Shown here one piece after another: positions 1,440 to 35,482 of a stretch of DNA of 35,482 nucleotides. Source of the DNA: a virus (lineage: Duplodnaviria > Heunggongvirae > Uroviricota > Caudoviricetes > Peduoviridae); IMG/VR virus record IMGVR_UViG_2529292997_000024. One strand, given 5' to 3'. Every line of letters starts with the position of its first letter. Within the stretch, counting starts at the first letter, position 1. Made by a program: the position numbers and the translations under genes. The notes under the pieces were generated by a model. The model had not been told where the DNA came from, did no database searches, and saw nothing but the letters and a program-made list of their open reading frames with translations.

Positions 1440-1446
1440 CCGTTTC

Positions 1447-1533
1447 GCTGAAAAACATAACCCATAAAATGCTAGCTGTACCAGGAACCACCTCCTTAGC
1501 CTGTGTAATCTCCCTTACACGGGCTTATTTTTT
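1447..1533 (+). ncRNA. cyaR: CyaR (RyeE) Hfq-dependent small RNA
   Basis: Sequence gctgaaaaacataacccataaaatgctagctgtaccaggaaccacctccttagcctgtgtaatctcccttacacgggcttatttttt matches the CyaR sequence as I recall it, ending in a hairpin plus U-tract terminator. Confidence 0.8.
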
Positions 1534-1534
1534 A
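1507..1534. repeat. Left copy of the 28-bp prophage attachment core (aatctcccttacacgggcttatttttta), overlapping the cyaR terminator
   Basis: Exact 28-bp direct repeat with 33667-33694; ogr-proximal end of the prophage. Confidence 0.85.
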
Positions 1535-1934: not shown

Positions 1935-3098
1935 TTACTCATCATCTTCTGTTTCGTACTCCACATCAGAAAGCCTGACCTCAAGCTCCAAGGACGTCGT
2001 GAAGCCGCTATTATTCAGAAAATGTGTCACCTTAGTGATTGTCCAGTCCTGCTCGTCTATGACGCGCTTAAAGCCTGACACTCTGACCGGTGTTTCCGTG
2101 TAAATATCAGCACGACCAGTGGCAAGGCTGATGGAGAACTCCGCAACGCCCCGTTGCAGTTTATCCCACTTCGCCTGAGCGGCGCGCATGGCCTGTGCTT
2201 TCGTGGCATATACCGTAGTCAGGGCAAAAACGTTGTCAGCTTCACCGGCCATGTATTCACCTTCGCGCGCTTCCGGTACTTTTGGCGCTTTCTTCTGCGT
2301 GACCGGTTTCGCTTTCGGGTGCTCCAGTGCGCGCAGGTGTTTTTCTTTCTTTTTGCGTTTCAGTTTTACCTTCTGCTTTTGCGGCTTCGGGTCTTTGGTG
2401 TGTAACCACTTTGCCGTTACGCCGGTGTAAGCTCCACGGTCAGCAATCGCAAAATGATGACGGTCGCCGTCGCTGCGGGTGATGGTAATCTGCGGGATTT
2501 TTTTACCGCTGGCCGTCACGCCCTGCCCCGCTTTGAGAAACAACAGTTTTCCCATTTTTACCGACACCTCACCGCCGTTGCGTTCTGCAAGACGGGTCAG
2601 GAATTTCGCATCAGACTCCTGCGACTGGTCAATGTGCGGGATTTTAATTCCTGCCAGTGACGGCGCGACACTGGCTTCCAGCCTGTTACGGGAGGCTATC
2701 GCCTCAACAATCGCACCGAGCGTGGTGTCATGCCAGGAGCCTTCACGGCGGGAATTGAGCGTCCCGCGAAAATCTGCACTCCGGGCGCGGATGGTGACCA
2801 CATCCGGTGCGCCCCGGTGTTCAACCTCATCAACGGTAAATTTCCCTTTGCATACCAGGGCAAAACCTTTCCAGCCGATATACACCGTCAGGACAGCGCC
2901 ACGAACCGGTAGCCCTACCTGCCCGTCGGCGTCGTTCAGTTCAATATCAAGCTGGTCAGCCTCAAAGCCCCGGTTATCCGTCAGGGTCATGCTCATCAGA
3001 CGGTCGCTGATATTGCCGGTAATATCCCTGCTGTCGAGCATCAGCATGTAATCCGGCGTCAGCGTACTGCCTGCATCAAATGTCAGCGCATCCAGCAT
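1935..3098 (-). CDS. D: Tail protein D (387 aa)
   Basis: Length and position match P2 gpD; follows U with overlapping stop/start. Confidence 0.85.
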   Translation of the reverse strand: MLDALTFDAGSTLTPDYMLMLDSRDITGNISDRLMSMTLTDNRGFEADQLDIELNDADGQVGLPVRGAVLTVYIGWKGFALVCKGKFTVDEVEHRGAPDVVTIRARSADFRGTLNSRREGSWHDTTLGAIVEAIASRNRLEASVAPSLAGIKIPHIDQSQESDAKFLTRLAERNGGEVSVKMGKLLFLKAGQGVTASGKKIPQITITRSDGDRHHFAIADRGAYTGVTAKWLHTKDPKPQKQKVKLKRKKKEKHLRALEHPKAKPVTQKKAPKVPEAREGEYMAGEADNVFALTTVYATKAQAMRAAQAKWDKLQRGVAEFSISLATGRADIYTETPVRVSGFKRVIDEQDWTITKVTHFLNNSGFTTSLELEVRLSDVEYETEDDE

Positions 3099-3577
3099 TA
3101 TCCCGCCCCCGTCATACCCGTGAATCTGGTCGCCATACTGCCAGCCTTACCGATGAGCGATTCCGCCTGTTTACCGATATCGCCATAAAGCGCGGCCAGT
3201 GATTCATCAACGCGGGTGAGTGACAGCGTAAAATCAATTTTCCGGGGTGTGCCGTCTGCAAAGAAAATACTCCCTGTTTCACTCACCTTGCTGACGATAT
3301 ACATGCCGTAAATCATGCCAGTGCCATCCAGCAACGGCCACGCCCGGCCTTCCTCTGCCATCAGCCTGAGCGTGGTCATCGTCAGCTTCCCGCCGGTCAG
3401 TTCGGGATAAAGCACGCCGGCAAGCGTCATGTTTTCCTCACCCACACCGAGAAACTGGTAGGCATCCCGTTTACCGATACGGGAATTTGACGGCCAGCGA
3501 TAATCTGATTCACGCTGCATGGTCTGGTGTGGCAGCGTCTGGCGCATAAAAACAAACATACCTAACGCGAGCATCAT
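3098..3577 (-). CDS. U: Tail protein U (159 aa)
   Basis: Length and position match P2 gpU, between T and D. Confidence 0.85.
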   Translation of the reverse strand: MMLALGMFVFMRQTLPHQTMQRESDYRWPSNSRIGKRDAYQFLGVGEENMTLAGVLYPELTGGKLTMTTLRLMAEEGRAWPLLDGTGMIYGMYIVSKVSETGSIFFADGTPRKIDFTLSLTRVDESLAALYGDIGKQAESLIGKAGSMATRFTGMTGAG

Positions 3578-3591
3578 TTTTCGTCACCTCC

Positions 3592-6039
3592 TTAACCGTC
3601 ATGCATCATGCTGGCACGGGCGCGCGCACGTTTATCCCGCTCGTATTTTTCGAGCGCATCCTGTAACTGGCGGTCAAGCTGTGTCCCCGGCGCAGTACCA
3701 CCCGTCAGGCTGATGTGATATTCGTTTTTACTCTGGTCCACATAAGAGCGACCAGCCGGTACCGTGACCGGCTGATAAGCCTGATAGCCTGCATAAGAGC
3801 TGGTCGCCGGAATATAACCACCGGTGCCATACGTGGCGGCATGAGTTCTGGCGGCGGTCTGGTCAAGTGTGTCTGACTCTTTGTTGATAACACCGAGTTT
3901 TTCCAGTACCCAGTCAATGCCGCTGCGCAGTTTGTTGAACGCATTAAGCGGCAGCATCAGCGCGTCAGCCAGTGCCTGCCCGAACATGACGCCCGTATCA
4001 CGGCAACGGTTCAGGGTGTCCTGGGTGGCTTTGACGGGGGCAATCAGGTTTTTAAACCACTGCCACGCGGCCTGTAACTTTTCACCCAGCCAGTCAAACA
4101 CCGGCTTAAGTGGCGCGAACAGTTCCCCCACCGGCGCAAATGCCGCTTTCAGCCCTTCCACCACACCGCCAAAGAATGCGCTGACAGGCTCCCAGTATTT
4201 ACGGATAAGCAACGCCCCGGCGACAATTGCAGCCACCACGGCCACAACCGGCCAGCTAATCGCCCCGATGGCCGTCATAACAGCACTGCCAACCGTCGTG
4301 AAGATTGCCCCCATTGCGCCTGCTGCCGCGATAATGGCATTGATGCCGGTGATAACCGGCCAGGCTACGAGGCCAATGGCACCGATGACACCAGTCAGCG
4401 CCAGTGCACCACCGACAATGATGCCGATGGTTGACGCCAGTGATTTGTTTTTCTGGATCCAGCCGTCGAGTTTTAACACATACTTTGTGGCCGTCTGCGT
4501 GAGATTACGCAGTGCGCCTTCCTGCTGGTCAAACAGGTCAGTCCCCACCGCCTCATAAGCGGACTGAAACTCCTTAAAGTCACCGCCGAGGTTGTCCTGC
4601 ATGATTTTAACCAGCTCTTCCGTTTTACCGTCCGAGGCTTTCAGCGTGGCGGTCAGCTTATCCAGTTTTCCGCTTGCAGCCGCTGCCAGTAAAACGTTCG
4701 CTGATTTCAGGGCTTCCTCACCAAAAATGGTTTTAAGGTATTCCCCCTTCTGAGACGTTCCCAGCTTGTGTTTATCAAAGCTGACCTGAATCTCTTTCAG
4801 AATGGTGAACAACGGACGCATATTTCCCTTTTTGTCCGAGGTTTTAACGCCAAGCTCTTTTAGTGCTTCCCATGCTTTCCCTGTCGGAGCCTGTAATCGG
4901 GTGACAACGGCACTACTACCCGTACCCGCCATTGACCCCCTGATGTTATTGTCATGCAGCACACCTGTCATGGCCGCTGCCTGCTCAAGACTTACACCTG
5001 CCGTCCTCGCAACCGGACCGAGGTAAGTCAGTGCATCACTGAGTCCCTGAAAATCAGCCGCCGACTTATTCATCGTTGCTGACAACACGTCGCCCACATG
5101 GCTGACATCATCATTTGACAGTTGAAAGGATGCCTTAGTCCCCAGCAACAGTTGCGCGTTTTCTTCCATCGACCGCTGATTCGCCAGTGCCATATTCAGC
5201 GTGACCGGCGTTGCCGCCTGAATAGCCGCAGCATCCCCACCCGCTTTCGCGATGATTATCTGTGCACCGGCCGCATCATCCGCCGAGGCGGCGGTATTGT
5301 CGCCGAGCTGGCGCGCCTGTTTGCGTAGTGCGGTCATTTCGGCGGAGTCTTTTGCCACTCCGAGCACGGCCTGCAATTCTGAGTTTTTCTGCGCAAACTC
5401 ATAACCGGGCATCAGCAACTTAACTCCGGCCATCGTTCCCGCCGCCGCAATCCCCACACCGGCAGCGCCTACTGAGGCCATATTTCCGGCCAGTTCCTTT
5501 CCGGCCTGATAACGCTGTTTGACTGCGTTAAGTTTTGCCTGTTGCGCACTGACACGCGCCAGCGCGTCGCGCTGACGGTTAAGCTGTGCGGTGGTTTCAC
5601 TGATACGGTTTTTCAGTCCCTGCTCATCATGTGCAAGATTGCGGGTATTAATTCCCACAGCGGCCAGTTCCCGCTGCTGGCGTTTAACGGAATCCGTCAG
5701 GCGGTTATATTTCGCCTGTAAGTCCTCCGCCGCTCGCTTTGCGGATTCCAGCACTTTCGCCTGAGCACGGGTTGGACGTTCGGTGTTTTTAAACTGTGTG
5801 GCAAGGGCTTCGGCTTCCTGCCGTGCCTTTTCAAGTGCATGACCAGTCACGGCGAGCTGCGCACTGGTCTTGCGAAATCCCTCAATACGGGATGCGTGAC
5901 CGTTCAGCTCGCGCAGTGATTTTTGTGTTTCCCGGATATCCCCCGACAGCGACTTGCTCGCTGTGCGGATGGATTTAAACGGGCGGGATGCCTGGTCAAC
6001 AGCCCTGAGCAATACCTGTAATTTTACATTGTTACTCAT
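3592..6039 (-). CDS. T: Tail tape measure protein T (815 aa)
   Basis: 815 aa with coiled-coil N-terminal region and Gly/Ala-rich hydrophobic central region; length matches P2 gpT. Confidence 0.9.
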   Translation of the reverse strand: MSNNVKLQVLLRAVDQASRPFKSIRTASKSLSGDIRETQKSLRELNGHASRIEGFRKTSAQLAVTGHALEKARQEAEALATQFKNTERPTRAQAKVLESAKRAAEDLQAKYNRLTDSVKRQQRELAAVGINTRNLAHDEQGLKNRISETTAQLNRQRDALARVSAQQAKLNAVKQRYQAGKELAGNMASVGAAGVGIAAAGTMAGVKLLMPGYEFAQKNSELQAVLGVAKDSAEMTALRKQARQLGDNTAASADDAAGAQIIIAKAGGDAAAIQAATPVTLNMALANQRSMEENAQLLLGTKASFQLSNDDVSHVGDVLSATMNKSAADFQGLSDALTYLGPVARTAGVSLEQAAAMTGVLHDNNIRGSMAGTGSSAVVTRLQAPTGKAWEALKELGVKTSDKKGNMRPLFTILKEIQVSFDKHKLGTSQKGEYLKTIFGEEALKSANVLLAAAASGKLDKLTATLKASDGKTEELVKIMQDNLGGDFKEFQSAYEAVGTDLFDQQEGALRNLTQTATKYVLKLDGWIQKNKSLASTIGIIVGGALALTGVIGAIGLVAWPVITGINAIIAAAGAMGAIFTTVGSAVMTAIGAISWPVVAVVAAIVAGALLIRKYWEPVSAFFGGVVEGLKAAFAPVGELFAPLKPVFDWLGEKLQAAWQWFKNLIAPVKATQDTLNRCRDTGVMFGQALADALMLPLNAFNKLRSGIDWVLEKLGVINKESDTLDQTAARTHAATYGTGGYIPATSSYAGYQAYQPVTVPAGRSYVDQSKNEYHISLTGGTAPGTQLDRQLQDALEKYERDKRARARASMMHDG

Positions 6040-8513: not shown

Positions 8514-9152
8514 TTAACCACAGATGATATTGAAACGTTCTCCGGAAATCTTGACCATAATGTCAGACAGTTCGCTGACGGCATGGGCTTCAGATGATCC
8601 CGGAGCGTCAGGCTGAACAGCTATTACCGAAGCTCCACTTGCCAGCCCTGCTTTTATACCCGCAGATGCATCCTCAAATACCACGCATTCACCAGGCTCA
8701 AGGCCCAAAGCCAAAGCTGCTTTGATGTAACCCTCGGGACTTGGTTTTCCCGTCATTACATCTTCTGCACACACCATTACTATGGGTAAGGGGAGATTAG
8801 CCGCTTTCATCCTGTTTTCGGCAAGCATTCTGCCTGCCGAAGTGACAAGTGCCCAGCTATCCGGTGGCAGTTTTGATAAGAGTGCAGCGGCCCCTTTTAC
8901 TTCAGTAACGCCTTCTGTCGTGTTGATTTCAACCTCTTCGAGTGAGGCCGCGATTTTATTGGTTTTCTCACCTGCACCAATAAAATGCGTCAGTGTATCA
9001 ATCGTTTGCCGCCCGTGTGCGTAAGCAATCACAGCCTGAGTATCAAGACCGTATTCTGCACAAAAATCTCTCCAGACGCTTTCCACTACGGCTGTTGAAT
9101 CAACCAGCGTACCGTCCATATCGAATAAAAAACCCTTAGCGTTGAATATCAT
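8514..9152 (-). CDS. HAD-superfamily (class IA) phosphatase/hydrolase, cargo gene in the Z/fun slot
   Basis: N-terminal HAD motif I FLFDMDGTLVDS, plus a KPSPEG and a C-terminal FEDASAGIKAG motif. Start set at the second ATG (9152), which has an AAGGA Shine-Dalgarno with 6-nt spacing; the ORF track starts at 9158. Confidence 0.7.
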   Translation of the reverse strand: MIFNAKGFLFDMDGTLVDSTAVVESVWRDFCAEYGLDTQAVIAYAHGRQTIDTLTHFIGAGEKTNKIAASLEEVEINTTEGVTEVKGAAALLSKLPPDSWALVTSAGRMLAENRMKAANLPLPIVMVCAEDVMTGKPSPEGYIKAALALGLEPGECVVFEDASAGIKAGLASGASVIAVQPDAPGSSEAHAVSELSDIMVKISGERFNIICG

Positions 9153-9181
9153 TGCCATTCCTTAATGGTTGCAGAAGAAAG

Positions 9182-9820
9182 TTAATCAAACCATGTTTTT
9201 TCATCACCTTTCGCTACTCTCAGGCTGACAGCAATCTGCTCAGGCACAATTCTTGAAAGCGACAATTCAGGCAGGTCGTTGACATCAAAAAAATCAGCAT
9301 CGAGTGACTCATGGCTGATTGACAGGCTGCCACCTACTTCTTCACAGAGAAAAATCAGCTTGTAAACATGCCAGGGTAAAGGCGGATGGCCGTGAAGATT
9401 ACGATCCCAAACTCCCAATAGTTTAGTCACTCTGACTTTTAATCCGGTTTCTTCTTCGACCTCTCGACGCACAGCTTCAGAAGGTGTATCTCCAACATCT
9501 GCCCATCCGCCAGGAAGACTCCATAATCCATCTGCAGCCTCTTTCACCATCAGAATACGATTATTGCGCAGGATAAACGCACGCACATCTGTTTTGGGCG
9601 TCGCGTAACCCGTTTCCGATACATGAAACAAATCATTGCGGCTAATATCAAACTGCGAACTCAGCAGTCCAGCGGCAATTTCACGCAAGGCTTCATAGCG
9701 TTCCTTGTCAAAGACGTCTTTTGAATAGGTCAGGCCTGACTGCGCGAGGGCCTTTAGTCTCTGGGCAACAAAAATAAGCTTTTCTTGGGTCAACACTTCA
9801 GACATGTTTTTCATCTTCAT
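9182..9820 (-). CDS. Nudix hydrolase with an N-terminal extension, cargo gene in the Z/fun slot
   Basis: Nudix box GGWADVGDTPSEAVRREVEEETGL (Gx5Ex7REUxEExGU pattern); lies between G and FI, where P2 carries Z/fun. Confidence 0.7.
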   Translation of the reverse strand: MKMKNMSEVLTQEKLIFVAQRLKALAQSGLTYSKDVFDKERYEALREIAAGLLSSQFDISRNDLFHVSETGYATPKTDVRAFILRNNRILMVKEAADGLWSLPGGWADVGDTPSEAVRREVEEETGLKVRVTKLLGVWDRNLHGHPPLPWHVYKLIFLCEEVGGSLSISHESLDADFFDVNDLPELSLSRIVPEQIAVSLRVAKGDEKTWFD

Positions 9821-25101: not shown

Positions 25102-25120
25102 GTGCTTTCCCCGCCTCGCC
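25102..25120. other. cos: cos site: 19-nt cohesive-end sequence of P2-type phages
   Basis: gtgctttccccgcctcgcc is the reverse complement of GGCGAGGCGGGGAAAGCAC, the P2 cohesive end as I recall it; lies about 170 bp beyond the Q stop. Confidence 0.75.
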
Positions 25121-25258: not shown

Positions 25259-26308
25259 ATGTGCTACACTTTTATACAAACCTATGATAAAAGCGATAAA
25301 AAATCTTCCATTTTGGCGAACATTATGACGGATATTGAAACAGCTCGATGGAACACAGAAAGTGCCGCTTTGTTGGCACTATCAGAAATACATGGCGTTA
25401 GTTATTGGACTCTATATAAAGTTGCTCAAAAGGGAATCAGATTTAGAGACATTGTTACCAGCCAAACATTAGCCAACTTTGAGTATCTACTTGGAGTAAA
25501 ACTTCATCGCCAACCTTATTATTTGAATGAAGGCAATTGGTCTGTTTTTCGGGACAGCATGATTTCTACGGCTAAAATATTACTCACACATTATCATAAT
25601 AGTGGTTACAAAATCATCCACCATGGTTCTCCGAGCTATCCAGACAAGTTGAATGACCTGTCTGAGCCGCCTTTCTGGTTGTTTGCTCAAGGCAATGTAT
25701 CCTTGCTAGATAAAAAGTGTGTTGGAGTTGTCGGCACCAGAAACCCAACCGCACTTGGAATTTATTTAACTCAAGCAGTAATCTCGCAATTTATAGATTC
25801 GGATTATTCAACTGTAAGCGGTTTAGCATATGGTATAGATCAATCTGCACATGAAGCATCCCTGTTATTTAAAATACCGACAATTGCTGTGTTAGGTACT
25901 GGCGTAAACTCAAATTATCCCAAAAATAGTGGCGAGATGAGAGGCCATATTGTAAATAATGGCGGACTGATTCTTACTGAGTATTTACCAAACCAAAAAC
26001 CATCACAGGAAAACTTTGTTCGTAGAAATAGAATTCAAGCAGCTTTAAGTGATGTATTGATCCCAGTTGAATGGGGCCTAAAAAGTGGGACATCTCATAC
26101 TGTGAGATATGCTGCTCAATTAAAAAGAGCGATACTTTGTCCTTTACTTAGGGGAACTACACCTCAAGAAGAGATTAAACATGCCTTGTCAGAGTACTCA
26201 GCTACGATAATGAATATTCCACTATCCGATTTTAAAGACGTGCAAAGCTTAATTAAATCAGCATCCGGTGTAAAAACACAGCAACTTTCTCTTCTGGGAG
26301 ATGAATAA
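25259..26308 (+). CDS. DprA/Smf-like (DNA processing protein A fold) protein; ShosA-like candidate
   Basis: Rossmann-type DprA motifs CVGVVGTRNPTALG, SGLAYGIDQSAHEA, IAVLGTGVNSNYP, LILTEYLP and NFVRRNRIQAALSD; AT-rich; start could instead be the ATG at 25325. Confidence 0.7.
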   Translation: MCYTFIQTYDKSDKKSSILANIMTDIETARWNTESAALLALSEIHGVSYWTLYKVAQKGIRFRDIVTSQTLANFEYLLGVKLHRQPYYLNEGNWSVFRDSMISTAKILLTHYHNSGYKIIHHGSPSYPDKLNDLSEPPFWLFAQGNVSLLDKKCVGVVGTRNPTALGIYLTQAVISQFIDSDYSTVSGLAYGIDQSAHEASLLFKIPTIAVLGTGVNSNYPKNSGEMRGHIVNNGGLILTEYLPNQKPSQENFVRRNRIQAALSDVLIPVEWGLKSGTSHTVRYAAQLKRAILCPLLRGTTPQEEIKHALSEYSATIMNIPLSDFKDVQSLIKSASGVKTQQLSLLGDE

Positions 26309-26309
26309 T

Positions 26310-27584
26310 ATGTATTTAAAGGCAGTTATATTTTCAATCGCAGATGTTGTATTACCATTAACATCTAACACTCAACCTCAGGAACTAAAATCTAGAATCG
26401 ACTCTGAATTACGTAAGTTGTTTGCGTTTTTGTCATCAAAAGGGATTAAAGTTATCTTCTTGACAAATAAAAATAGAAACGTGAGAACACATGACGGGAT
26501 CGTAACACTAGACGAATACCTAAAAAGGAAATTCCCAGAATCAATTCACTTTTGCCGTGAACTCGACAACAACATACCAGCAAAACAAACAGGGAAGGCC
26601 ATAGATTTCATCATGGCTGCGTTAGAATTAAAACGAAACGAAATGATCTATGTAGGGCGTTCTCAGGAAGACTTACAAGCAGCTACCAACGGGAATACCC
26701 TATTTATTAATGCGACCTGGTATGAACCGGTTACTGAGTACGGTTTTCAATTTTCAGAACCCAAAGAAATCGCTAGATTTATTGATGTCTTTTGCTTAAG
26801 AGAGCAGTTGTGGGGATGGCAAGGGCATTTTAATGAAGATGTTCACTACTACGCCTTAGCACCATTTAGCACATATGTCCCTGAATTTACAATGTATTCA
26901 GCCAATGCAAGAGACCTCGCAAAGCTATCGGTTGGAAGCCCCGATTTTTGGATAAGATATCTTGGTGCTAGCATTTATTTCTCTGGCTTAAGTGAAGGAG
27001 CAAGTTTTATAACCACCTACGTTGGACATAACGCTGAAGATCCTTATAAACTAGCAAACATTATGGAGCATGACCTAAAAGGTTTAGCAGTCTCATTCAA
27101 AGGAAAGTATCTAAAAGATCTATTCTTACGACATACAACAGCTATTAAATCACAGCAAGCTCGGATAGCTAAGCAAGAAGTAAACATCACATCTCAAATA
27201 AACACCGTTAATTTAAATCCTGCCCCTATTAAAAACCTCATCACCGGCGAAAGATATACCAACCCTCCTAAATTGAAAGGTAAGAAAATATTAGTTATTG
27301 ATGATTTTTGCACTGAAGGAAATGCTCATGAAACAGCCAGAATGTATCTAAAAGCTGCAGGCGCAAATGTAATAAATATATCGTGGTTAAAAACCATCAA
27401 TCGTGACGTTTCTATCTGTGAACCAACTCGCAAGATACGGCCATGGGAGGCCAATACACTTGATGTTGATGACATTAACTATGTCGGTACGATTGGTTAT
27501 GCTGAAAATGTAACTCACGGTAGTGCACCTCAAGTGTTATCAGAAAAAATTCAACAATATGATAACTGGGACTGGCCACAATAA
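26310..27584 (+). CDS. PRTase-like (phosphoribosyltransferase-type PRPP-binding motif) protein with a large N-terminal region; ShosT-like candidate
   Basis: C-terminal KKILVIDDFCTEGNAHETA resembles the type I PRTase PRPP loop. Start set at the ATG at 26310, which has a GGGAG Shine-Dalgarno with 9-nt spacing (alternative ATG at 26301 overlaps the upstream gene by 8 nt). Confidence 0.7.
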   Translation: MYLKAVIFSIADVVLPLTSNTQPQELKSRIDSELRKLFAFLSSKGIKVIFLTNKNRNVRTHDGIVTLDEYLKRKFPESIHFCRELDNNIPAKQTGKAIDFIMAALELKRNEMIYVGRSQEDLQAATNGNTLFINATWYEPVTEYGFQFSEPKEIARFIDVFCLREQLWGWQGHFNEDVHYYALAPFSTYVPEFTMYSANARDLAKLSVGSPDFWIRYLGASIYFSGLSEGASFITTYVGHNAEDPYKLANIMEHDLKGLAVSFKGKYLKDLFLRHTTAIKSQQARIAKQEVNITSQINTVNLNPAPIKNLITGERYTNPPKLKGKKILVIDDFCTEGNAHETARMYLKAAGANVINISWLKTINRDVSICEPTRKIRPWEANTLDVDDINYVGTIGYAENVTHGSAPQVLSEKIQQYDNWDWPQ

Positions 27585-27759: not shown

Positions 27760-30015
27760 TTACCACTCATCAATCACTGGATATTTGAATTTTTTATTAT
27801 CATAAATCACCATCGCCCCACGCGCCAGCGCCTCAAGCTCCCATCGCTGAGGCCTGATACCGTTCTGAGCAAGGTCAACGCGGATACGGGTAATTTGCAA
27901 TCGTTCCGGCCGGGTCAGCCTGGCCGATGGTGCAATTTCATGTGGTTTTAACGGGCTTCCGTTTCTTTGCTGACGATTTGGTGTTCTCAGGCCGTGTTTT
28001 AATGCGCCCCTGAGCACCCTCACGACCTCCGGGTCATTCCATTCGATAACACCGTCATCAACCAGATTAAGCACTGCTGCGGCGTGTTCAGAAGGTGTGG
28101 GAGCCGGTAACGAAGTATCACCACTGGTGAGCTTTCCACAGTTATTGACAGGACTCCGAGGCGCGGCGATGCCGCTTTTTAAAGTCAAAGGCTCAACGAC
28201 CGGAACTTTCGGCACAATGCGCCAGTCCGTCGTTCTGGTGATATGAATATGACGCGCGCCGAGATGCGGCGCGTAAATGCCGACCACTCTCTCGACTTCT
28301 TCCTCGTACTCGTTAACTTCATCCGACGGGCTACGGGCGACTCTGACAGTCTGACAATCGCGCGGGACATTTGCCCCACCCTGCGCGCTGATATACAACG
28401 CAAAATCACCACTGTCTGCGGCGGCGCGTGCAGCCTCGACGCGCTCGTCAAACTCATCAGCAATGCTGACGCCGCGCGGCAATTTGCGTAGTTCACGGTA
28501 AGCCCCCATTGTCGGCAGGCCAACCGTTTTAAATTGCGGGATGCGCCACGTTGACGCCCATGCGGTAACAGCCGCTGCAGTGTCTTTCAGCGGCCTGCCG
28601 GTGTCGTTATCGAGCTGACCATCCAGTGCATAGCCGTCGATGTTTTTTGAAATGTATTTCGCGATATATCCCGCAGCACCGCCCCGGTTAAGGTGTTTTG
28701 CCTGAAAACGGTTTCGCGCGGCTCCTCTTTCGTCGCCATCCTCTTTGAGCGCATAGCGACGCATGATTTCGATAATCTGGTTACGCTGGCGTGAATTACA
28801 AAAAAGCATCATATGCCAGTGCGGCGTTCCGTCGTGGTGTGGCTCGACGACACGCAAACCGTAGACCTGTAAATCATTATCCTTGAATGCCGTGCGCATC
28901 AGGCTCCAGATACGGCAGAGATAACGCTGCGCATCCTTTGGATTAAATGCCTCATCGTTCCAGCCGTGATTAAGCTGCACGGTTTTACTTTCGCCTTTTC
29001 CTACCTGACGTGTCGGGTGATACTTTGACGGCGCGGTCAGCGTGATAAACATCCCCACATCACCCTCTGCAGCGGCGTAACGCTCAATACCGGCAATGGT
29101 GTTCATCAGCTCCATCCGGCGAATTTCAGGATTAGAAATACTGCCCATCACCTTACTGATAAGGTCGATGCGCTCGCCGGTTTCCCTGTTTTCAAGGTCA
29201 CACGATTTAAGAAATTCCAGATTTGCCTGGCGGCGCGCACGCACATCACGAATGGCGTGTTTACTGGCATAAGGAGAACGGTCTTTATTGACCTCCCCGA
29301 CAGCTATCAGTAACGCTTCATGCCAGCGCATACGCTGGCCTTTAAGCTGATGAGTCCACCACTCATCGTTAAACAGACGGGCAATGGCAGAATATGCCTG
29401 CCTCGTGGTCATCTGTCTTTTACGGTATTTTTTCCAGTAGAGAGGGGAAATATTGAAAGCTCGTGCAGCGCCAGCAACATGACCATACAGGTGATCCTGA
29501 GCCTCATCCGTAAACAGTGATTCTTTTTCGCCATGCGCATCCACCCAGGCATCGCTGAGTTCCTCATACATCATGAAAAGCTGCGATGAGATACGGGCGG
29601 CAAACTTTTTCAGCTCCTTGTCATTCATTCCCGGCAGGCGCGCATAGTGATCACGCTCTGCCAGAAACAGCAACGACGCGTCGGTGTTCATTTCATGGCG
29701 CTGATTCACACGCTCAATGCGCGGCCATAAACGACGCTGAAAAGTGGATGTGAGGAAATAAAACCCGTGCACCGGGCTTTTATTGCGCCGGATGTAGTCA
29801 TAGCGTGAAGTAAACAGCGAGCGCAAAAAGTAAGGCAGGCGGTTAATCGTGGATAAAACACCTTGCACCTGACGCATCTCGTCACGTGTAAGGGGTCTTT
29901 CGCGCCCGACGGCCTCGCGTGGCGCGTTCCATGCATAAGCACCGGTAAACGTCTTACCGGTGCCTGCGGCAAATGCTGACGGAGGGACAAAACGCCCGGA
30001 GGCTTTAACGGCCAT
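27760..30015 (-). CDS. A: Replication initiation protein A (rolling-circle nickase)
   Basis: Position and length (751 aa from the first ATG at 30015) fit P2 gpA (about 761 aa as I recall); the ORF track extends 14 codons further to 30057, where the codon is TTG. Confidence 0.88.
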   Translation of the reverse strand: MAVKASGRFVPPSAFAAGTGKTFTGAYAWNAPREAVGRERPLTRDEMRQVQGVLSTINRLPYFLRSLFTSRYDYIRRNKSPVHGFYFLTSTFQRRLWPRIERVNQRHEMNTDASLLFLAERDHYARLPGMNDKELKKFAARISSQLFMMYEELSDAWVDAHGEKESLFTDEAQDHLYGHVAGAARAFNISPLYWKKYRKRQMTTRQAYSAIARLFNDEWWTHQLKGQRMRWHEALLIAVGEVNKDRSPYASKHAIRDVRARRQANLEFLKSCDLENRETGERIDLISKVMGSISNPEIRRMELMNTIAGIERYAAAEGDVGMFITLTAPSKYHPTRQVGKGESKTVQLNHGWNDEAFNPKDAQRYLCRIWSLMRTAFKDNDLQVYGLRVVEPHHDGTPHWHMMLFCNSRQRNQIIEIMRRYALKEDGDERGAARNRFQAKHLNRGGAAGYIAKYISKNIDGYALDGQLDNDTGRPLKDTAAAVTAWASTWRIPQFKTVGLPTMGAYRELRKLPRGVSIADEFDERVEAARAAADSGDFALYISAQGGANVPRDCQTVRVARSPSDEVNEYEEEVERVVGIYAPHLGARHIHITRTTDWRIVPKVPVVEPLTLKSGIAAPRSPVNNCGKLTSGDTSLPAPTPSEHAAAVLNLVDDGVIEWNDPEVVRVLRGALKHGLRTPNRQQRNGSPLKPHEIAPSARLTRPERLQITRIRVDLAQNGIRPQRWELEALARGAMVIYDNKKFKYPVIDEW

Positions 30016-30280
30016 ATGAGCCAAAAGCCTCTGAACAACGCTTGCTGAGTTGCTCAACCTGCGCGTTTAAATCAGCAAAAGACTTTGCGCTTCCGGTCAG
30101 AATATCGTGATGCATCAGGCCGGAAACGAGCTGGCTTAATTTCGGGTAATAACCAACCACCGCCAGCCATTCCTGACCGGCGTTTTTACCGCTTTCAGCT
30201 CTCTTTTTCTCGTGGAGAATAAACTGAAAGCTGTCACTGGTAACGACATAACGTTCGCCAATTTCAATACGAATACTCAT
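30005..30280 (-). CDS. Small early-operon protein (orf83 position, 91 aa)
   Basis: ORF in the P2 B-to-A interval; stop just upstream of the A start. Confidence 0.6.
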   Translation of the reverse strand: MSIRIEIGERYVVTSDSFQFILHEKKRAESGKNAGQEWLAVVGYYPKLSQLVSGLMHHDILTGSAKSFADLNAQVEQLSKRCSEAFGSYGR

Positions 30281-30501: not shown

Positions 30502-30806
30502 TACCAGTTCCTTTTGTCGTTAAGGTTTTTAAATTCATCAGCGCAATAGCTGGCGATTTCTGTCGTTAATTTCGTCAGTTCATCCACGGAGGAGATTTGC
30601 TTGTGAAACACAGCGCGTTTAACAAGCAAATTGACCACATCAGACAGGAGGTTTAATTCGTTCTGATAAATCGCGATAACAGACTCAGTTATTTCGCGTT
30701 TTTCTTTATCAAGACCAAGTTGAATAAGAGACAAATCGCCATTTTTCATAACGGCGATTTTTAAGGCGTTATTCAGTAATACAACTGAACGAGAACAGGA
30801 CATCAA
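30501..30806 (-). CDS. Hypothetical protein (orf81 position, 101 aa), AT-rich
   Basis: ORF overlaps both neighbours by 1-4 nt (operon coupling); visibly lower GC than flanking genes. Confidence 0.55.
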
Positions 30807-32573: not shown

Positions 32574-33587
32574 ATGGCAATCAAAAAACTCGATGATGGT
32601 CGATATGAAGTGGACATCCGCCCTACTGGACGTAATGGAAAACGCATCCGTAGGAAGTTTGATAAGAAAAGCGAAGCTGTCGCTTTCGAGAAATACACGT
32701 TGTACAACCACCACAATAAAGAATGGCTATCAAAACCAACAGACAAGCGACGTCTGTCGGAGCTGACACAGATCTGGTGGGATTTAAAGGGTAAACACGA
32801 AGAGCATGGGAAATCTAATCTTGGAAAAATTGAAATCTTCACAAAAATAACGAATGACCCATGCGCATTTCAAATTACGAAATCGCTTATCAGCCAGTAC
32901 TGCGCCACCCGAAGAAGTCAGGGTATTAAACCTTCGAGTATCAATCGTGATTTAACATGTATTAGCGGCATGTTTACAGCCCTGATTGAAGCGGAGTTAT
33001 TCTTTGGTGAGCACCCTATCAGAGGGACAAAAAGGCTTAAGGAGGAAAAACCAGACACAGGCTATCTCACGCAGGAAGAAATTGCCTTACTGCTTGCTGC
33101 TCTTGACGGCGACAACAAAAAGATTGCGATTCTTTGCCTGAGTACTGGAGCACGTTGGGGAGAAGCAGCTCGTTTGAAAGCAGAAAATATCATCCATAAC
33201 CGCGTCACGTTTGTTAAAACGAAAACAAACAAACCACGCACCGTCCCGATCTCAGAGGCTGTTGCCAAAATGATCGCGGATAACAAACGAGGTTTTTTAT
33301 TCCCTGATGCTGATTACCCTCGCTTCAGACGAACAATGAAAGCAATAAAACCGGATTTGCCAATGGGGCAAGCCACACATGCACTAAGGCACAGCTTTGC
33401 CACTCATTTCATGATTAATGGAGGAAGTATTATCACGCTACAACGGATACTAGGTCACACGCGGATTGAGCAAACTATGGTTTACGCTCATTTTGCGCCA
33501 GAGTACCTTCAGGACGCCATTTCTCTTAATCCGCTAAGAGGTGGTACTGAGGCCGAGAGTGTCCACACAGTGTCCACAGTAGAGTAA
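32574..33587 (+). CDS. int: Tyrosine integrase (337 aa)
   Basis: MAIKKLDDGRYEVDIRPTG... with C-terminal catalytic R...HxxR...Y region; GGAGGG ribosome-binding site 7 nt upstream; adjacent to the att core. Confidence 0.9.
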   Translation: MAIKKLDDGRYEVDIRPTGRNGKRIRRKFDKKSEAVAFEKYTLYNHHNKEWLSKPTDKRRLSELTQIWWDLKGKHEEHGKSNLGKIEIFTKITNDPCAFQITKSLISQYCATRRSQGIKPSSINRDLTCISGMFTALIEAELFFGEHPIRGTKRLKEEKPDTGYLTQEEIALLLAALDGDNKKIAILCLSTGARWGEAARLKAENIIHNRVTFVKTKTNKPRTVPISEAVAKMIADNKRGFLFPDADYPRFRRTMKAIKPDLPMGQATHALRHSFATHFMINGGSIITLQRILGHTRIEQTMVYAHFAPEYLQDAISLNPLRGGTEAESVHTVSTVE

Positions 33588-33666
33588 CGTTTAAGGGCTT
33601 TCAGTGGTAATTTATGCCGCTCAAACCCGCATTGTACCGTTGAAAGCCCCTACTGGTGACACCCTA

Positions 33667-33694
33667 AATCTCCCTTACACGGGCTTATTTTTTA
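33667..33694. repeat. Right copy of the 28-bp prophage attachment core
   Basis: Exact 28-bp direct repeat of 1507-1534, 79 bp downstream of the int stop. Confidence 0.85.
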
Positions 33695-33850
33695 TGCATA
33701 AGCCGTATCCTGGTCACCGTCTTCCATTGACCACATCGATAGAATCCCCCTTCATAACACGATGCCTTTCACGTAACGGCATCGTGCTCGTACAGATTCC
33801 GGCTACGCACAACCAGAACGCGCATGTTTGACGCTTACCAAAAAATATTC

Positions 33851-34168
33851 TCACTCTCCACATTTGAATGTCAGACGAGCGACGCCATGTAATCCTGCAC
33901 CTTCTGTCTTCAGGTCAACTATCTGCATTTTTTTGCCCTGAGTAACACAGAAATGAGCTGCATCATTTTTTACTATATTTTCTGCACCAGAAATTCTGCC
34001 CCTGGCTAAAGAAGCTTCGGCTTCGGTGTAGTATTGGTTATCGAGTTTACGCTGAATATTACTTTTATATGCAAGACCAAATTTACCGATACTTGTCTCA
34101 TCATTATGTACAGCACACCCAGACATAAGAAAAACACTAATTAATGATATAGCAGCTATCTTTTTCAT
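33851..34168 (-). CDS. yegR: YegR, small putative lipoprotein (105 aa)
   Basis: MKKIAAISLISVFLMSGCAV signal peptide with lipobox; host gene between the prophage and yegS. Confidence 0.7.
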   Translation of the reverse strand: MKKIAAISLISVFLMSGCAVHNDETSIGKFGLAYKSNIQRKLDNQYYTEAEASLARGRISGAENIVKNDAAHFCVTQGKKMQIVDLKTEGAGLHGVARLTFKCGE

Positions 34169-34582
34169 CTTACCTTCCCCCATTAAATACCAACGACACG
34201 CTCTGGTGTTAAAATATAATAATGGCATGATTATTATAATTGAATAGGATTATAATAAATGTTCTGTACAACATTTCCTACATAAGTAGGAATTACATAC
34301 ACGGAGGCCCTTCCGGGTAACCCCATGGGGGGGTTAATATATTTTTAATAGTATATTGAAGATGCCACTGTTTAGTTGAATATTAGGTATATGCTCTTTT
34401 TTGAAATTTACCTATGGCTACCGTTAACATTCACTGTCCCCATTGCAAGCTCCTGGTGGTAACCACTGAATCCTCTATACTTGAACTGATTTTTTATCCT
34501 CCGACTTTCATCCTGTTCTGACTCCACCTTTTCTTTTCTGCTCTACACTATCTACAGACCAATCATAAAGGCACATACGATC

Positions 34583-35482
34583 ATGGCAGAATTTCCCGCC
34601 AGCTTACTGATTCTTAATGGCAAAAGTACTGACAATTTACCATTGCGCGAAGCAATTATGCTGTTGCGTGAGGAAGGAATGACGATCCATGTGCGGGTCA
34701 CCTGGGAGAAAGGCGATGCCGCACGATATGTAGAGGAGGCCCGGAAGTTGGGCGTCGCAACGGTGATTGCCGGTGGTGGCGATGGCACCATTAATGAAGT
34801 TTCTACGGCGTTGATTCAGTGTGAGGGGGATGACATACCCGCGCTAGGAATTTTGCCATTAGGAACCGCCAATGATTTTGCCACCAGTGTAAGGATTCCT
34901 GAGGCACTGGATAAGGCGCTGAAACTGGCAATTGCCGGTGACGCCATTGCGATAGATATGGCGCAGGTCAACAAACAAACCTGTTTTATTAATATGGCGA
35001 CAGGCGGATTTGGGACGCGTATTACCACAGAAACGCCGGAAAAATTAAAAGCCGCGCTGGGTGGCGTCTCTTACATCATTCATGGCTTAATGCGCATGGA
35101 TACTCTGCAACCGGACCGTTGTGAGATCCGCGGTGAAAACTTTCACTGGCAAGGTGACGCCCTGGTCATTGGTATTGGTAACGGGCGTCAGGCCGGTGGC
35201 GGTCAGCAATTGTGCCCGAACGCGTTAATTAACGATGGCTTGCTGCAACTGCGCATTTTTACCGGCGATGAAATTCTTCCGGCTCTCGTATCAACATTAA
35301 AATCTGACGAAGATAACCCGAATATTATCGAAGGCGCTTCGTCGTGGTTTGATATACAAGCCCCACACGAAATCACTTTTAATCTTGATGGCGAACCGTT
35401 GAGCGGACAAAACTTTCATATTGAAATACTTCCGGCGGCGTTGCGTTGTCGATTACCACCAGATTGCCCATTGTTGCGTTAA
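34583..35482 (+). CDS. yegS: YegS lipid kinase (diacylglycerol-kinase-like fold), complete 299 aa
   Basis: [32 protein letters not shown]... with GGDGT motif; host gene ending at the window edge. Confidence 0.88.

Follow-up and report, generated by a model that had tools for sequence, protein, structure and literature searches.

A Probable Decayed P' Arm beside the Right att Core

Immediately to the right of the right att core, the window (the whole stretch of 35,482 nt that was analysed) contains at 33695-33753 (+) a sequence which is most probably the decayed P' arm of a P2-family element that integrated at the sRNA gene cyaR and was eroded to a 774-bp island with a decayed core. This relic is homologous to the attP P' arm at 1535-1600, from which it differs by a deletion of 17 nt.

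The relic begins at 33695, where it abuts the core, and it is oriented in the same way as the P' arm that starts at 1535 in attL of the resident prophage. In the 7 nt beyond the core, five of the seven positions agree (CGCGTAA versus TGCATAA). A repeat search paired 1567-1610 with 33710-33753 (44 nt, 70% ungapped identity), and the similarity fades near 33753. The offset of this repeat pair is 32143 compared to 32160 for the core, which corresponds to a 17-bp indel. The top local alignment places CTGGTCA-CGTCCACACATTGACCACATTGA opposite to CTGGTCACCGTCTTC-CATTGACCACATCGA with a score of 33, a value that was reached by none of 2000 dinucleotide shuffles (mean 15.3, sd 2.3, maximum 26) and that corresponds to P ~3e-5 in a Gumbel fit. 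Most P2-like phages carry CATTGACCACATCGAC in this position and are thus closer to the relic than the window's own prophage.

An earlier note on this DNA had described the sequence to the right of the right core as an imperfect copy of that to the right of the left core, with an indel of roughly 17 bp, and had derived it from the ogr-proximal end of a former P2-like element. The copy and the indel are confirmed by the values given above, and the derivation from the P' end is borne out by the homology at the core boundary and by the empty sites in sister species (see below). The extent of 33695-33765 assigned to the relic has to be corrected, though the similarity itself stands: it ends near 33753, and the relic is the left tip of a larger island at 33695-34468.

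A BLAST search of the relic against phages returned, apart from a match to phage 186, solely records that include host flank, namely "Phage TP" AY639599 with a K-12-type region and vB_EcoM-720R8, which includes yegR-yegS; no extant phage with a closer P' arm was among the matches. Scanning IMG/VR with the 16-mer ACGCACAACCAGAACG yielded 51 loci, and extended similarity was observed only in 186, one 186-like contig, and prophage contigs with host flank. The remaining ACGCACAACCAGAACG loci lack extended similarity and were discarded as chance matches. A side observation concerns the IMG/VR prophage contigs L069, L084, and L130, which show a hybrid right junction with CGCGTAA (phage type) followed by the host-type GCCCTATCC; here the exchange is located to the right of the canonical core, inside the extended YGCRTAA similarity.

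Layout of the Window and the att Core in cyaR

The window extends from yegQ/trhP (1-1362, +) at its left end to yegS (34583-35482, +) at its right end. A P2-like prophage of approximately 32 kb, flanked on both sides by a 28-nt att core, is situated between yegQ/cyaR and yegR/yegS. Its ogr (approximately 1635-1860, -), D (1935-3098, -), A (27760-30057, -), and int (32574-33587, +) genes were located, as well as its cos site (25102-25120, +), which served for comparison with the fossil element. A complete ShosTA defence system was detected at 25259-27584 in the cos-proximal hotspot of this prophage (PADLOC: ShosA E 2e-231, ShosT E 4e-296). Furthermore, two cargo-like genes encoding a HAD-family hydrolase and a NUDIX hydrolase are situated among the tail genes at 8514-9820; the NUDIX hydrolase gave a weak PADLOC match to the candidate system PDC-S07 (E 7e-10), and the gene pair may be located in the Z/fun-type region.

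The sRNA gene cyaR (ryeE) occupies 1445-1534 (+). It matches Rfam family RF00112 at 1445-1530 with 100.7 bits and an E-value of 3e-19 (gathering score 47), and it is kept downstream of yegQ across enterobacterial genera. Its last 28 nt, AATCTCCCTTACACGGGCTTATTTTTTA, represent the P2 att core. This core forms attL of the resident prophage (B-O-P') at 1507-1534 (+) and recurs with the same letters at 33667-33694 (+), where it is attR of the resident prophage and also the left-hand core of the fossil element. According to the predicted fold, the cyaR terminator is built of the hairpin GCCUGUGUAA/UUACACGGGC and a U-run, and the att core covers the loop, the 3' stem, and the T-tract of this terminator. 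The stem halves co-vary between genera, with GCCTGCGTAA/TTACGCAGGC in Citrobacter and Salmonella and GCCCGTGTAA/TTACACGGGC in Kluyvera. The 3' half of the E. coli cyaR gene is identical to P2 attP and differs at two positions from that of the sister Escherichia species; its end may have been replaced by phage copies.

Phage targets of this kind have already been named, i.e., ryeE/cyaR in E. coli and ryeB/sdsR in Salmonella (PMC3603311, PMC3333887). In integrations of this type, which affect sRNA as well as tRNA genes, the 3' end of the gene is restored by the copy that the phage brings along. The present locus resembles them in that the core coincides with the end of the gene and in that foreign DNA has repeatedly piled up downstream, as at the sdsR locus. 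It differs from these in that one of the insertions is resolved as a phage fossil bounded by a decayed repeat of the core, and in that a leftover gene, yegR, is now near-universal in E. coli.

Composition and Right Boundary of the Island

The island (33695-34468) is composed of the P'-arm relic, a 186-type terminus fragment, yegR, and a P-arm relic, and is followed by a decayed core at 34469-34497. All four fragments occur in the order and orientation expected for a P2-like prophage that shares the direction of the resident one. The GC content of the island is 40%, compared to 50-54% for yegS and yegQ.

The 186-type fragment at 33798-33846 (+) corresponds to the right end of 186-like genomes just inside cos (30517-30565 of phage 186), with 79.6% identity and an E-value of 0.01 in BLAST; in the pairwise comparison none of 2000 shuffles scored as high (P ~4e-8). 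Between the cos flank of the resident prophage and the E. coli relic no match was obtained (P 0.76), and the similarity of this flank to the island of L178, the GTDB species representative labelled E. coli SCPM-O-B-8794, which belongs to a divergent Escherichia lineage, was weak (P 0.0045). Thus, the ancient terminus is of the 186 type and unlike that of the resident phage. To the left of this fragment, an inverted repeat at 33758-33786 (unstranded) consists of a perfect 9-bp stem, CACGATGCC and GGCATCGTG, separated by an 11-nt spacer. Its fold z-scores are -4.5 and -3.0, no T-run follows the repeat, and the terminator scan made no call there. In L178 the equivalent position is occupied by the palindromic cos-flank sequence TTTTAATACATTTGCATG, of which the repeat may be a diverged form.

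The P-arm relic at 34429-34468 (+) corresponds to the int-side arm that adjoins the core. Comparing the core-anchored 40-mers 34429-34468 and 33627-33666, 26 of 40 positions are identical, which was equalled neither in 20000 shuffles nor among 20000 genomic 40-mers; this significance is restricted to the comparison anchored at the core boundary, the unanchored local test being not significant (P 0.05-0.1). The second att core, AATCCTCTATACTTGAACTGATTTTTTAT (34469-34497, +), marks the right boundary of the fossil element. It shares 18 of 29 positions with the ancestral core, a value equalled by 13 of 20000 shuffles, so that the E. coli copy on its own would be a weak candidate. Directly after it, at 34498, the ancestral cyaR-yegS spacer (…CGACTTTCATCCTGTTCTGAC…) restarts. 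These boundaries were taken from direct inspection and exact motif coordinates, as MAFFT misaligned the short sequences and set their ancestral spacer against the relic; the resident P' arm (1535-1600, +) was likewise delimited by exact motif coordinates.

Taken together, 33695-34468 is an insertion with core repeats that is P'-like at its left end and P-like at its right end, which is the signature of P2-type integration in the orientation of the resident prophage. A tblastn search with all prophage proteins of the window gave no match in the islands of E. coli or L178 besides yegR itself, and no phage protein-coding remnant was recognised there.

The K-12 Remnant and Other Remnants at the Same Site

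A P2 remnant of K-12 at locI, consisting of ogrK and a fragment of gene D (yegZ), was reportedly described by Barreiro and Haggård-Ljungquist in 1992 (J Bacteriol 174:4086). The order in K-12 is attL, ogrK, D', a deletion junction inside the right core, and then the same relic as in the window. In K-12-type loci, ogr and D' are 97% and 96% identical, respectively, at the amino-acid level to those of the window's prophage, and neither ogr nor the 3' part of gene D is present in the relic. Since K-12 carries both, with ogrK-D' situated to the left of the relic, the ogrK/yegZ remnant and the relic are separate entities, and the earlier note, which had called the ogrK remnant the same kind of relic, has to be corrected in this respect. 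Both have in common the attachment site, the orientation, and the origin from a P2-family prophage shrunk by internal deletion. In contrast to the remnant of K-12, which is young, strain-restricted, and located left of the relic, the fossil is far older and devoid of phage genes; it has come close to fixation in E. coli and constitutes the right flank of attB itself.

Further remnants occur at the cyaR site of other species. In E. albertii NBRC 107761 (L182, 1518-4913), the core is followed by a truncated P' arm, an IS fragment, cdtABC, a P arm, and a second core; this locus is a cargo-only P2-like remnant. In C. amalonaticus S646, fragments of ogr, V, and int (ogr', V', int') are present, and an Enterobacter species carries a V fragment. 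In S. enterica subsp. diarizonae (L193, 2050-5000), the cyaR core is followed by a P'-like arm with the sites CCCACCACA and TTGACCACA and by ORFs of 358 and 138 aa, whose products we judge from their sequences to be NleB/SseK-like and chaperone-like, respectively; a second core was not detected at this locus. Three Enterobacter loci (L227, L229, and L231; approximately 2990-4925) contain two cores approximately 1.9 kb apart around two uncharacterised, hydrophobic-looking ORFs of 321 and 199 aa. YegQ of L229 is 99% identical to that of E. coli, which is odd for Enterobacter. The remnants in K-12, E. albertii, C. amalonaticus, Enterobacter, and S. diarizonae are in good agreement with the repeated integration and decay that had been proposed for this site.

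With regard to the size of the ancestor, the surviving parts of the fossil, i.e., att arms, a cos-flank fragment, and one cargo-like gene without any fragment of a structural or replication gene, would also be expected from a small integrative element or satellite with a P2-type Int, a cos site, and a cargo gene instead of a full-size P2/186-like phage. Such an element would require fewer and smaller deletions, and P4-like satellites, too, keep a cargo hotspot beside cos (PMC13586616). Nevertheless, we regard a satellite as improbable, since all significant phage matches are to full Peduoviridae genomes, the younger Citrobacter and Enterobacter remnants at the site retain phage genes (ogr, V, and int), and K-12 illustrates the erosion of a full P2 at this very place.

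Arm-Type Sites in the Relic

Arms of the P2 type carry at least two direct repeats each of an arm-type site with the consensus tgTGGaCa (PMC3448106). The resident P' arm contains two such Int sites, CGTCCACA (1574-1581) and TGACCACA (1585-1592), which are the reverse complements of TGTGGACG and TGTGGTCA. In the relic, one site is intact, namely TGACCACA at 33728-33735, a perfect match to the attP P' site, and the other one is decayed to CGTCTTCCA. With one intact copy instead of two direct repeats and a core spacing that is 14-17 nt shorter than in attP, 33695-33753 would by sequence criteria be classified as a relic and not as a functional arm.

The intact copy of TGACCACA raises the question whether the relic was kept for a function. 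As a putative site approximately 34 nt from the core, it might be bound by the N-terminal domain of P2 Int and affect locI preference or excision, considering that attR in lysogens becomes P-O-(P'-like). This site falls within the longest run free of variation in a set of 23 E. coli haplotypes, which were compared by means of anchors independent of the relic. This run of approximately 21 nt is not statistically unusual, however (rough estimate ~0.2), and hence no functional constraint is claimed; the 23 haplotypes gave no evidence of constraint on the relic. Moreover, the second arm site is decayed, the spacing to the core is shortened, L178 lacks both sites, and P2-like phages use the same attachment site in the relic-free E. 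ruysiae. We therefore assign a low probability to the preservation of the relic for an Int-related function, and decay of a former P' arm remains the preferred reading.

Distribution in E. coli and Empty Sites in Related Species

The right flank (33640-34400) was matched in 5424 of 5426 complete E. coli genomes, including prophage-free ones, and in most of the matches listed the similarity begins exactly at the core. In the prophage-free strain ECOR29 the order is yegQ, cyaR/core, relic, yegR, and yegS. Due to its presence in nearly all E. coli, with or without a prophage, the relic is part of attB locI and not a peculiarity of this strain.

Among related species, the locus was recovered from 78 GTDB species representatives by anchoring on YegS; this sample comprises one genome per GTDB species, and E. 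fergusonii is missing from it. In at least 35 enterobacterial species, the core is located approximately 147 nt after yegQ and at most approximately 110 nt before yegS, and neither the relic nor yegR is present. Such empty sites were observed in E. whittamii, Escherichia sp. E1V33, Citrobacter, Klebsiella, Enterobacter, Kluyvera, Atlantibacter, Lelliottia, and Pseudocitrobacter. Here, the core is followed at once by the spacer equivalent to the window from 34498 onward, and the sequence is continuous across the insertion point. In E. ruysiae, attR of a P2-like prophage lies directly against the ancestral spacer, without an island. Since the sister species keep the core without relic or yegR, the relic is not regarded as ancestral host DNA; it is old and has become essentially fixed in E. 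coli.

These data bear on the reverse direction of transfer, in which the sequence beside cyaR would be ancestral host DNA and the P' arm would have been taken up by P2-like phages, e.g., via imprecise excision. The presence of the relic in essentially all E. coli, prophage-free strains included, is what such a history predicts, and the earlier note had named the same ancestral sequence in prophage-free strains as an observation that would speak against a phage origin. Carriage by such strains was indeed found, ancestry was not: the relic is missing at the same conserved site from the sister Escherichia and from more than 30 further enterobacterial species. P2-like elements of island-free hosts (E. 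ruysiae, E. albertii, and C. amalonaticus) carry the P' arm all the same, this arm holds the Int arm-type repeats that define a P2-type attP (PMC3448106), and the island additionally contains a second core, a P-arm stub, and a stub of a phage genome terminus. An origin of the P' arm from host DNA is therefore very improbable, and the direction from phage to host is retained in the following.

A Graded Series of Erosion

L178 provides a less eroded version of the island. Compared to the window, its YegS is 96% and its yegR product 93% identical at the amino-acid level, and dS is 0.34-0.70. The left end of the L178 island is longer, and its P' arm lacks the 17-nt deletion (CGTAA-CCAATTGAATTAAAA-GATTTGTTTCTGGTTACGCCC, P ~8e-6). 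Over an 81-nt stretch that follows, there is homology to the outermost right part of the phage 186 genome, starting from the genome terminus beside cos (score 70, P ~6e-13), and in the sequence upstream of this homology 11 of 25 positions match cos when counted by eye. The second core is also clearer than in E. coli, with 21 of 29 identical positions and an equal result in one of 20000 shuffles. In a comparison with 50,697 phage records, the L178 island matched Peduoviridae only, besides one host-flank record and two marginal hits to Acinetobacter phages (E 0.4). In detail, nt 95-174 match the terminal approximately 80 nt of 186, SEN1, SW9, SI22, BIS20, EtG, Midge, PSP3, and Yersinia phages, and nt 1-50 match the attP of P2-type Peduovirus with 80.4% identity (BLAST, E 0.03). 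The left core of L178 has TTACAC(A)GGC like attP, and the right copy has TTATGCAGAC, which is near the ancestral TTACGCAGGC. This difference of one or two bases may reflect a crossover to the left of these positions.

Intermediate stages were observed within E. coli. Four of the 5426 genomes contain variant relics in which most of the 17-nt gap is filled with P'-like bases. Strain PMV-1 (L057, approximately 640-810) contains an extra segment of approximately 172 nt directly downstream of yegR, at position 33846/33847 of the window, which extends the homology to 186 and L178. This segment is kept in some E. coli and in L178 and is deleted in the window and many other strains; its differing presence between E. 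coli strains indicates that erosion of the island is continuing within the species. A graded series thus leads from extant P' arms via L178 and the rare E. coli variants to the common E. coli relic.

Since the rare E. coli variants and L178 fill the 17-bp gap with bases resembling the P' arm, the similarity is due to homology, and a chance recurrence of two short AT/GC-mixed blocks beside both att copies, to which the best block of 31 nt and the approximately 70% identity of the E. coli relic over 44 nt might lend themselves, is effectively refuted by these sequences together with the result of the 2000 shuffles, the anchoring of the match at the core boundary, and the independent homologies to the P arm, the 186 terminus, and the second core.

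yegR, the Sole Intact Gene of the Island

The gene yegR (33851-34168, -) encodes a small predicted lipoprotein with the lipobox LMSGC and is the sole intact gene of the island. Its product is annotated as YegR or lipoprotein YegR and bears the precomputed Pfam family label PF27694; neither a PADLOC match nor a match above threshold in the Pfam-A scan was obtained. The gene is AT-rich (GC 39%), and its dN/dS of 0.07 against L178 points to purifying selection. The sister Escherichia species do not possess yegR. Among 50,697 phage records, no YegR homologue was found beyond records with host flank. The distant homologues are few and occur in non-phage settings (in Enterobacter, an island rich in IS elements; elsewhere, a chromosomal locus), and none of them in P2 contexts.

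yegR adjoins the cos-flank stub, and the same relative place is taken by ShosTA in the resident prophage and by orf97 in phage 186. P2-like phages are known to carry cargo in a hotspot of the cos-proximal (TO) region (PMC13586616, PMC3091744), and cdt-V is carried on P2-like prophages according to a statement cited in PMC5136569. The position of yegR beside the cos-flank stub, like that of cdtABC between P' and P stubs in E. albertii, is thus similar to that of cargo in grounded prophages and in the hotspots of P2-like phages, from which it differs in that YegR has neither a phage homologue nor a PADLOC match. Hence yegR probably arrived as phage cargo of the cos-proximal hotspot. Due to the lack of a phage homologue and the occurrence of the distant homologues outside of phage contexts, it is the position of the gene that suggests this origin.

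Proposed History of the Site and Its Meaning

The homologies, the boundaries of the island, its absence from sister species, and its near-fixation in E. coli can be read directly from the genomes; Int-mediated integration followed by deletions is the mechanism that we infer. In an ancestor of E. coli and L178, a temperate P2-family element would have integrated by Int-mediated recombination at the 3' end of cyaR, in the same orientation as the resident prophage. Internal deletions would then have eliminated two blocks, the late region (ogr to cos) and the early region (cargo hotspot to int), leaving behind the P'-arm stub, the 186-type stub of the cos-side genome end, yegR, the P-arm stub, and the decayed second core. 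Serving as the cyaR terminator, the left core was preserved intact. As this left core is still the primary P2 attachment site (locI), newer P2-like phages, including that of the window, integrate directly to the left of the fossil, and the ogrK/D' remnant of K-12 would represent a later round of the same process. Since the P' and P arms are of the P2 type and the terminus fragment is of the 186 type, either a mosaic ancestor or two separate events are needed.

The fossil does not constitute a new kind of biology: it is a well-supported case of a known kind, a decayed prophage with one retained gene. An earlier description of the fossil, or of the homology between the locI flank and the P' arm, was not found in the literature searched, from which key older papers were absent.

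It is tempting to speculate that the fossil is still active, with locI being an attB with a built-in P'-like arm and, in parallel, yegR being a domesticated cargo lipoprotein, e.g., an exclusion or defence factor. We consider this unlikely. If the first part were true, attR of every locI lysogen would resemble attP, which might contribute to the preference of P2 for locI or alter the efficiency of excision; if the second part were true, E. coli would have kept yegR under selection since the ancient lysogeny.

The 3' end of cyaR emerges as a multi-species hotspot at which P2-like elements erode to their cargo (E. albertii, cdtABC; S. diarizonae, an effector-like gene; E. coli, yegR), and the fossil provides a clean, datable case of prophage decay and gene domestication. 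For yegR, uncharacterised and present in nearly every E. coli, the location inside a phage-derived insertion offers a concrete hypothesis on its origin and a reason to test phage-related functions. The primary site of P2 in E. coli, finally, is more than mere host DNA, as the cyaR terminator, which makes up its left half, is flanked on the right most likely by the stump of an earlier P2-family prophage.
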